Shown: positions 25,985-26,554 of the stretch, in pieces
How positions within the stretch are numbered: position 1 is the stretch's first letter
Layout: every line of letters begins with the position of its first letter
Virus genome (UHGV): UHGV-0126502
From: a virus
DNA: 37,604 bases
Strand: one strand, 5' to 3'
The notes under the pieces: generated by a model
Databases searched by the model: none
What the model was told of the DNA's origin: nothing
The model's input: only the letters and a program-made list of their open reading frames with translations
Translations under genes and position numbers: made by a program

Positions 25985-26554
25985 TTACTGGTTGTAAGGA
26001 TCGTAATCCGTGATTGCCTTCCCCGGATTTTCATCTTCAGAAGGCAGTCGGGCCTCTAAAGCATTTCGGTTGAACAGATAGGAAGCCCTACAGTACGAAC
26101 AAACCATATTAACGGCTCGCCCAAGGCCTGGCTTAGTAACCAGACCTTCCGCTTGCAATATAGATTTTCTCTTTTGCTCGTAGCAATTGGGACAAATATA
26201 AACCGGAGATTGGTCAGCATCTGCAGAAAGCTTGCTGCGATAGACCAGAGTACCCCGCATAGGCTGGTAAAGTTCATAGCTCGCCGCTTCAGCGGCCCAG
26301 TTCTCTTGCTTTACTTTCTCATTTTCCAGTTCAACAATTTTCTCCTTAGCCGCAATCAGCAGCTCCTGAAGCGACATTTGCTGCATCTGAACATCCATTA
26401 GCTTATCGAGTAAGATGTGCGTCTTCTCTTTAACTGCATAGTCGACAGTCAGATTCTGAATCTCTCTTGCTGCTCCAACCGCGCTTTTAATTGCTCCTCC
26501 CACGCCGGATAACGATTCAGTTATCCGGGAAAGAATTCCTTTTTCTTCAGACAT
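25985..26554 (-). CDS. Immunity-region protein of unknown function with coiled-coil N-terminus and C-terminal zinc ribbon (CPNC...CSYC)
   Basis: 189 aa, ATG with GAGAGAG RBS; convergent with the CI-like gene and antisense to the PL-like transcript; lower GC than flanking genes. Confidence 0.6.
   Translation of the reverse strand: MSEEKGILSRITESLSGVGGAIKSAVGAAREIQNLTVDYAVKEKTHILLDKLMDVQMQQMSLQELLIAAKEKIVELENEKVKQENWAAEAASYELYQPMRGTLVYRSKLSADADQSPVYICPNCYEQKRKSILQAEGLVTKPGLGRAVNMVCSYCRASYLFNRNALEARLPSEDENPGKAITDYDPYNQ

Follow-up and report, generated by a model that had tools for sequence, protein, structure and literature searches.

What does a gene do that lies alone between the repressor gene and the early operon of a prophage, on the strand opposite to both? 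The question is raised by a 189-aa ORF in UHGV-0126502, a viral DNA of 37,604 nucleotides (this whole stretch is referred to as the window). A preliminary description of the locus, drawn from the letters of the sequence, had credited the predicted protein with a coiled-coil N-terminus and a CxxC...CxxC zinc ribbon, recognised no domain in it, and proposed a lysogen-only exclusion or defence gene that faces the repressor gene and would be read antisense from a PL-like promoter after induction. We address in turn the surroundings of the gene, the family of its product, its placement in other phages and the signals that flank it, and use them to weigh the possible roles of the protein.

Results

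A lone minus-strand gene faces the CI-like repressor gene

The window has the appearance of a complete prophage, with terS (17987-18538), terL, portal (14896-16362), protease, integrase and repressor genes. The ORF, hereafter rip1 after the family to which it is assigned below, begins with ATG and has the length, strand and coordinates given in the preliminary description (Table 1); a Shine-Dalgarno (SD) sequence, GAGAGAG, the complement of 26562-26568, is found 8-14 nt 5' of the start codon. In RefSeq, the identical ORF is WP_021548393.1, a 'hypothetical protein' of E. coli NCTC9022; across the 2.4 kb compared, the prophage of this strain and the window are 100% identical. Near-identical phages that were induced and are viable, including vB_EcoM-689R2, encode a rip1 homologue at 97% amino-acid identity.

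rip1 is a lone gene, without partner, between the CI-like gene and the rightward operon. On its left is a divergent pair composed of a cro-like HTH gene on the minus strand and the CI-like gene on the plus strand, the former followed by a Prim-Pol/DUF5906 primase gene; on its right, the operon also encodes a Nmad5-family protein and a DNA polymerase in addition to the genes of Table 1. The gene does face the repressor, as first described, being convergent with a gene that encodes HTH and peptidase S24 domains. The T-runs flanking the terminator 3' of that gene suggest that minus-strand rip1 transcripts could stop there too.

Two further observations concern the same prophage. First, rip1 has no terminator of its own, and minus-strand RNA would extend antisense through both the leader and the early promoter until it meets the two-way terminator of cI; for this reason, rip1 transcription in the lysogen could, speculatively, interfere with the early promoter. 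Second, a homologue of the abortive-infection protein BstA (PHROG 6287, E 3e-105) is encoded on the minus strand at 33583-34515, a second defence gene of this prophage, opposite in strand to its neighbours, DNA polymerase (30779-32842, plus strand) and helicase (34520-36013, plus strand).

Table 1. Coordinates of the rip1 locus and its flanking signals in the window.
Feature	Position	Strand	Description
Operator TTACAGGTTTACTTGTAA	24889-24906		cro/cI intergenic region; 90% identical to TTACAGGTTTGCTTGTAT
CI-like repressor	24979..25608 (start 24928 or 24979)	+	HTH_3 and Peptidase_S24; convergent with rip1
Intrinsic terminator, tImm equivalent	25629..25650	+	3' of the CI-like gene
PL-like early promoter TTGACA-18-TATTTT	25711..25740	+	10/12 consensus match; best promoter-like site of the region
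Operator TTACAGGTTTGCTTGTAT	25720-25737	+	in the spacer of the PL-like promoter
Leader RNA of the early transcript	25759..25933	+	boxA, multi-stem domain closed by GCGTGAC/GTCACGC, terminal hairpin
boxA GCTCTTTAACAA	25759-25770	+	19 nt after the -10 hexamer; rrn-type
rip1 homologue	25985..26554	-	189 aa; N-terminal amphipathic/helical half and C-terminal four-Cys domain (predicted zinc ribbon)
Upstream element, ~100 nt	26555..26656	-	directly 5' of rip1; accompanies enterobacterial rip1 genes in unrelated phages
Two boxes ACCCCTACAG	26571-26581 and 26605-26615		read ACTGTAGGGGT on the plus strand; 34 nt apart
RprA 3'-end look-alike	26674..26719	+	AATTGCTGTGTGTAGTCTTTGCCC (seed-like), terminator hairpin and T6
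Rightward early operon start	26746..29695	+	60-aa ORF, 300-aa ORF, DUF2800 nuclease, Enc34-type SSB

The protein is a full-length homologue of Rip1

A phmmer search of the PDB chains with the 189-aa protein returned 9oox, 'ring interacting pore 1 (Rip1)' of phage HK446 (E 3.5e-47), with residues 3-166 of 189 aligned to residues 3-162 of 164; tblastn against the HK446 genome gave 52% identity. An AlphaFold2 model built from 14 homologues, of moderate confidence (mean pLDDT 69.8), displays helices at residues 3-34 and 39-90 followed by a beta-rich C-terminal domain (93-162). Its sole significant PDB entry in Foldseek is again 9oox (chain M; E 2e-10, 49% identity), on which it superposes with a target-normalised TM score of 0.90 and an rmsd of 2.1 A over 128 columns. 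9oox is the cryo-EM structure of HK446 Rip1 in complex with the small terminase of phage T6. Structure prediction and remote homology search, two of the checks suggested in the preliminary description, both lead to Rip1.

Conservation within the family points to the same organisation. Four cysteines, C121, C124, C152 and C155, and also Y93 are invariant in 46 diverse members with identity down to 22%, and W86, L95, Y105 and L133 are nearly invariant in the same set. The CxxC...CxxC announced from the sequence is thus confirmed, and the model has a helical N-terminal half; zinc binding by the four cysteines is itself a prediction. Residues 7-36 form an amphipathic helix with a small-residue face (hydrophobic moment 0.34-0.44), a pattern near-identical to that of HK446 Rip1. 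When 1.84 billion representative proteins were searched with a profile, 3406 relatives were obtained at E ≤ 1e-3, 2042 of them at E ≤ 1e-10. Note that the size of the family is visible only by such an exhaustive search, a word-indexed protein search having given 16 relatives only. With 3406 cluster representatives matching the family profile at E ≤ 1e-3, rip1 is no chance ORF.

That no domain had been recognised holds as far as Pfam is concerned: neither Pfam nor NCBIfam has a usable match for the protein, and a Pfam scan at E ≤ 0.1 gave only a sub-threshold and irrelevant hit to CRM1_repeat_2 (13.9 bits against a cut-off of 30). It does not hold beyond Pfam, the protein falling both in PHROG 1244, of unknown function (E 3e-39), and in the Rip1 family. 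PADLOC-DB v2.0.0 (2023), which is older than the description of Rip1, returned no family at E ≤ 10. By its sequence, the 189-aa gene is a member of the Rip1 family and a clear full-length homologue of HK446 Rip1.

The window's protein ends in a 23-aa tail (residues 167-189; 25985-26053, minus strand) terminating in ITDYDPYNQ, which HK446 Rip1 does not have. This tail is common to homologues of 50-65% identity from the same phage type (P0004, P0011), and many distant Rip1 relatives have at their very C-terminus a motif of similar, aromatic-rich type, D[WYF]xG[WY].

The homology bears on a first alternative, classical superinfection exclusion in the manner of SieB, SieA or Sie, in which the protein would act by stopping DNA entry or aborting infection at an early stage, with no ring-templated pore. 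rip1 occupies the sieB/rex neighbourhood of the immunity region, and its HK620 homologue, hkaP, is annotated 'putative superinfection exclusion protein'. However, the full-length homology is to a protein solved in complex with the ring of the small terminase, a late protein, the model carries amphipathic helices with no predicted transmembrane segment, and the protein has no Pfam similarity to the SieB or Rex families at E ≤ 0.1. We consider this form of exclusion very unlikely. The likeness to lambda RexAB and SieB is one of immunity-region neighbourhood and of role, i.e. a prophage gene that aborts the infection of another phage, and RexB is also a membrane-permeabilising effector. Rex differs in consisting of two proteins co-transcribed with cI, and sieB in its sense orientation in the PL operon, whereas rip1 is a single antisense gene.

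Rip1 is a characterised prophage defence

Rip1 was first described by Patel et al., Nature 651:1060 (2026), according to a 2026 review (PMC13434031) and a meeting report (PMC12908700), which present it as a single protein encoded by prophages and harmless alone. In the review, mutations that escape Rip1 lie in the portal in Pseudomonas phages and not, as in E. coli phages, in the small terminase. The same text reports that 12 Rip1 monomers cap the 11-mer ring of the small terminase, that the C-terminal half touches the ring and the N-terminal amphipathic helices build a pore, and that this pore permeabilises liposomes and cells, leading to premature death of the infected cell. Full-length homology to this experimentally characterised prophage defence supports the earlier suggestion of a defence gene.

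Opposite-strand placement recurs in other phages

The closest parallel is HK446 itself, in which rip1 is located directly after N on the opposite strand, so that it converges with N and runs antisense to the PL operon. The two proteins share ~50% identity over their full length, a helical N-terminal half and a four-Cys C-terminal domain, and both are encoded by a single prophage gene placed backwards in a PL-type early operon next to an antitermination signal, with the ~100-nt upstream element in common. The differences lie in the protein, 164 aa in HK446 and 189 aa here, with the added TDYDPYNQ tail and a longer loop between the two CxxC pairs, in the phage, lambdoid for HK446 and an Enc34-like/DUF2800-DUF2815-PolA myovirus for the window, and in the preceding signal, the N gene there and a boxA leader RNA without N gene here.

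Phage 720R6 likewise carries a rip1 homologue immediately behind N, facing against the direction of the PL operon. HK620 hkaP and the HK630 'HkaP protein' are also antisense within that operon and have the upstream element in common with the window; they belong to the Rip1 family (tblastn 29% identity, E 2e-7), are far more diverged in sequence and were never characterised beyond annotation. HK620 hkaP lies backwards after N, with a predicted tL1 inside it on the other strand. In PhiR29_1, as in the window, the homologue and cI converge; the genes upstream also lie on the strand opposite to the homologue.

Outside this group, the Pseudomonas Casadabanvirus gene (JBD30 gp30, D3112 orf25), the setting in which the review treats Pseudomonas Rip1, is a Rip1-family member with ~31% identity over the N-terminal two thirds, and again a lone gene on the strand opposite to the lytic operon. 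It differs in its location in the late packaging region, in JBD30 between a terS-like gene and terL, where it opposes both annotated flanking genes, and has no enterobacterial upstream element. The RcWaterboi homologue lies inside a Mu-like early operon and opposes both annotated flanking genes as well. Among ~40 IMG/VR loci analysed by naive ORF calling, opposite-strand placement was observed in most. In two of the distant metagenomic contexts the gene is antisense between late genes, and in others it forms a separate divergent unit, is co-directional with its neighbours, or immediately follows and overlaps a CI-like repressor gene.

In prophage contexts, rip1 is thus usually on the opposite strand within a lytic operon or beside repressor-type genes, both of which would allow expression in the lysogen. 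Given the co-directional cases, antisense embedding is to be seen as the enterobacterial solution and not as a rule for the whole family. On one metagenomic contig (L113, 203-1305), the start of a distant Rip1 homologue coincides with the stop codon of a same-strand CI-like gene (HTH and S24), which is the position of rexAB in lambda and an alternative route to lysogen expression.

An early promoter and a boxA leader RNA precede rip1 on the opposite strand

The operator in the spacer of the early promoter is shared with the cro/cI intergenic region (Table 1). The early promoter therefore appears to be under the same repressor, which would make it the equivalent of PL. A related inverted copy is present in the same intergenic region at 24933-24952. 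In all, the candidate repressor operators of the form TTACAG-N6-CTGTAA are located at 24889-24906, 24910-24927, 24933-24952 and 25720-25737, i.e. about three between cro and cI and one in the early-promoter spacer. A consensus scan found no further plus-strand promoter-like site from this promoter to position 26930, and no promoter-like site proper to the early operon at 26746. In relatives carrying a different repressor allele, the sequence differs upstream of 25759 and is conserved downstream.

Position 25759 is the first nucleotide of a 175-nt leader that shows almost no variation among 104 E. coli genomes and 51 IMG/VR contigs. The window's phage type has this leader, and so do Rac-like and lambdoid prophages, in which it is 85% identical and lies between repressor-side cargo and the kil/recE or gam/bet operon. 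Its boxA, GCTCTTTAACAA, varies little or not at all among 36 distinct copies; we take it to be of the rrn type, i.e. a site for NusB/NusE, the rrn consensus being UGCUCUUUAACAA. The terminal hairpin of the leader (25916-25933) has no U-tract.

Both the structure of the leader and its strand emerge from comparison of sequences, single-sequence folding being not significant (z = 0.71 for the plus and -1.55 for the minus strand). On 35 distinct copies, a plus-strand consensus of 45 pairs gives 7 non-standard cells out of 1575, together with 123 G-U cells; the same pairs mirrored to the minus strand give 126 non-standard cells. Four pairs covary in the plus-strand structure. The low number of non-standard cells on the plus as compared to the minus strand, together with this covariation, argues that the leader is an RNA made in the plus sense. 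A 104-aa ORF covering the leader on the minus strand (25720-26034) was rejected as non-coding, its start lying in variable cargo and the leader being conserved as RNA.

Rfam has no family for the leader, and blastn (word size 11) against 50,697 phage records matched four records, all from the same phage group and none of them HK022. The put RNA of HK022 is ~70 nt long and without boxA (PMC9378689). No N-like ORF is present between the early promoter and the early operon. From these sequence features, the leader may be an N-independent antitermination leader, the early transcript presumably being subject to boxA-dependent antitermination.

In the simplest reading, transcripts made after induction would start near 25747, gain the boxA leader, cross rip1 antisense and enter the early operon. 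The antisense position relative to a PL-like promoter, which the preliminary description had put forward, is supported at the sequence level by a promoter with a shared operator, a plus-sense leader and the lack of another plus-strand promoter in the scan. Silencing of rip1 upon induction and expression restricted to the lysogen are what we infer from this architecture.

The element upstream of rip1 is more conserved than the gene

The ~100-nt element directly 5' of rip1 is ~80% identical between lineages, compared to 57-60% for the DNA of the rip1 ORF. A -10-like TAATAT lies between the two ACCCCTACAG boxes, with T-A-n-n-n-T invariant at this position across lineages. The element comprises interleaved stems, GCCTG/CAGGC and AACCAC/GTGGTT, for which compensatory variants exist (GCCGGG/CCCGGC, AATCCTC/GAGGATT and ACCACG/CGTGGT), and each box is flanked by complementary arms that are specific to the lineage (CTCTT/AAGAG, TCAAC/GTTGA, TCACT/AGTGA). 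When the element is folded in the sense of the gene, the SD sequence of rip1 is paired.

Of these helices, RNAalifold on MAFFT alignments detected at most the GCCTG/CAGGC stem and in some runs none, because the helices shift register between lineages, and Rfam has no family for the element. Folds of individual sequences favour the early-transcript strand (-357 versus -308 kcal/mol in total), as do those of the two hairpins taken one by one (-97 versus -80 and -112 versus -86), an energy difference that is not decisive since this strand is G/U-rich. A consensus scan found no sigma-70-like promoter 5' of rip1. As the T-A-n-n-n-T motif fits a -10 hexamer equally well, we assign neither strand nor function to the element, which may act as promoter and operators, as a leader controlling translation, or as a structure within the antisense transcript.

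The boxes also raise the alternative that the protein regulates the immunity region by binding nucleic acid through its zinc ribbon, modulating early transcription from the ACCCCTACAG boxes or the early leader. Zinc ribbons are often nucleic-acid binders, and two identical boxes bracketing a -10-like element are conserved together with the gene. In the solved homologue, however, the same domain contacts a protein ring, and the protein has no Pfam similarity to Ogr/Delta or other zinc-finger regulators; moreover, autoregulation would add to a defence role, not replace it. A regulator in place of a defence protein is, in our view, extremely unlikely.

rip1 resides in a swappable cassette behind the leader

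The unit that is swapped between related prophages extends from ~25936 to ~26663, roughly 730 bp. Partial matches to the 2.4-kb region occur in 170 complete E. coli genomes, of which no more than 16 cover at least 80% of its length; in the other relatives examined, the flanks are ~98% identical and the middle is replaced by other cargo or by none. The slot holds an unannotated 64-aa CxxC...CxxC ORF on the plus strand in strain 89-3156 (locus L003, 2926-3120), a 68-aa ORF and an HNH endonuclease on the plus strand in JNEC-KY176 (L004, 2894-3581), and no annotated gene in strain B379. An 'ECs_2282 family zinc-binding protein' encoded on the minus strand in the same slot of a lambdoid prophage (L005, 3559-4011) was examined as a candidate relative and is unrelated to Rip1 by BLASTP. 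The slot behind the leader is, by these contents, a cargo hot spot. The rip1 allele itself is present at ≥ 95% identity in 49 of 5426 complete E. coli genomes, and a diverged form, ~69% identical over part of the gene, in 96 more.

Between the cassette and the early operon lies a look-alike of the 3' end of the chromosomal sRNA RprA (Table 1), with its terminator at 26694-26719, which scores 49 bits against Rfam RF00034, below the gathering score of 70. Over 46 nt it has 84.8% identity to the rprA gene of 5424 of the 5426 E. coli genomes, and it is kept, just 5' of the early operon, in relatives without rip1. As it includes a terminator, the early transcript must pass this RprA-like terminator before the operon. 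We found no paper on a phage RprA mimic.

The exchange of the cassette is relevant to a further alternative, in which the protein would serve the lytic cycle of its own prophage, either as a packaging or lysis-timing accessory on the prophage's own small-terminase ring or as a holin-like lysis helper. Family members bind terminase or portal rings and form membrane pores, according to PMC13434031, and Pseudomonas Mu-like phages carry the gene between the small- and large-terminase genes. Such a service is nevertheless difficult to reconcile with a gene opposite in strand to the lytic operons and absent or replaced in prophages otherwise 98% identical, or with an own small terminase that is SF6/SPP1-like and has no match to the TerS chain of 9oox. 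The deletion and expression data on Rip1 reviewed in PMC13434031 also favour defence. A role in the prophage's own lytic cycle is thus highly unlikely.

Discussion

We consider it very probable that rip1 is a single-protein defence of the Rip1 type, carried in a swappable cassette antisense to the early transcript, with a mechanism deduced from homology to HK446 Rip1. By this homology, the rip1 product would idle, harmless, in the lysogen until a superinfecting phage makes an oligomeric ring of small terminase (or portal), around which the C-terminal zinc-ribbon domains would dock. The N-terminal amphipathic helices would then assemble a membrane pore, and the cell would die, or lyse prematurely, before any progeny had matured. 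Note that the range of triggers, the pore and the phenotype are extrapolated from a homologue that is ~50% identical.

The ~730-bp cassette is inserted backwards directly behind the boxA leader of what appears to be a CI-controlled, PL-type promoter, and by this sequence-level geometry every early transcript made after induction would run antisense through rip1. Collision or antisense RNA may switch rip1 off while the prophage itself grows lytically. If its own rings were recognised, antisense control would not suffice to protect the prophage, since protein made beforehand outlasts the transcriptional shut-off; self-tolerance through non-recognition is therefore at least as likely as antisense control. 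The prophage's own small terminase is SF6/SPP1-like and without match to the T6 TerS chain of 9oox.

We further propose, tentatively and with more doubt than confidence, that enterobacterial rip1 is a mobile control cassette, composed of the ORF and the ~100-nt element, in which geometry and element together would constitute a switch for self-protection, with expression at a low level in the lysogen only and shut off upon induction. The element, more conserved than the protein, would supply the interleaved stems, the ACCCCTACAG boxes as hairpins or operators, and the sequestered SD, and a termination-resistant early transcript would shut rip1 off when the prophage goes lytic, sparing its own terminase and portal rings. 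The primary Rip1 paper aside, we found no description of this regulatory layer in the literature.

The core biology of Rip1 has been published since early 2026. New here is a Rip1-family member that has a C-terminal extension and comes from a phage background new to the family, and what may be new is regulatory, namely the backwards placement behind an antitermination signal, the upstream element and the boxA leader RNA. Overall, the analysis assigns a function, by homology, to an E. coli gene annotated 'hypothetical' and extends the Rip1 family to a non-lambdoid group of prophages, Enc34-like with a DUF2800/DUF2815/PolA replication module. It also points to a recurrent architecture, in which enterobacterial rip1 lies antisense behind an early antitermination signal together with a strongly conserved non-coding element. 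How a prophage survives its own ring-sensing pore-former during induction is a question that the rip1 locus makes directly testable.
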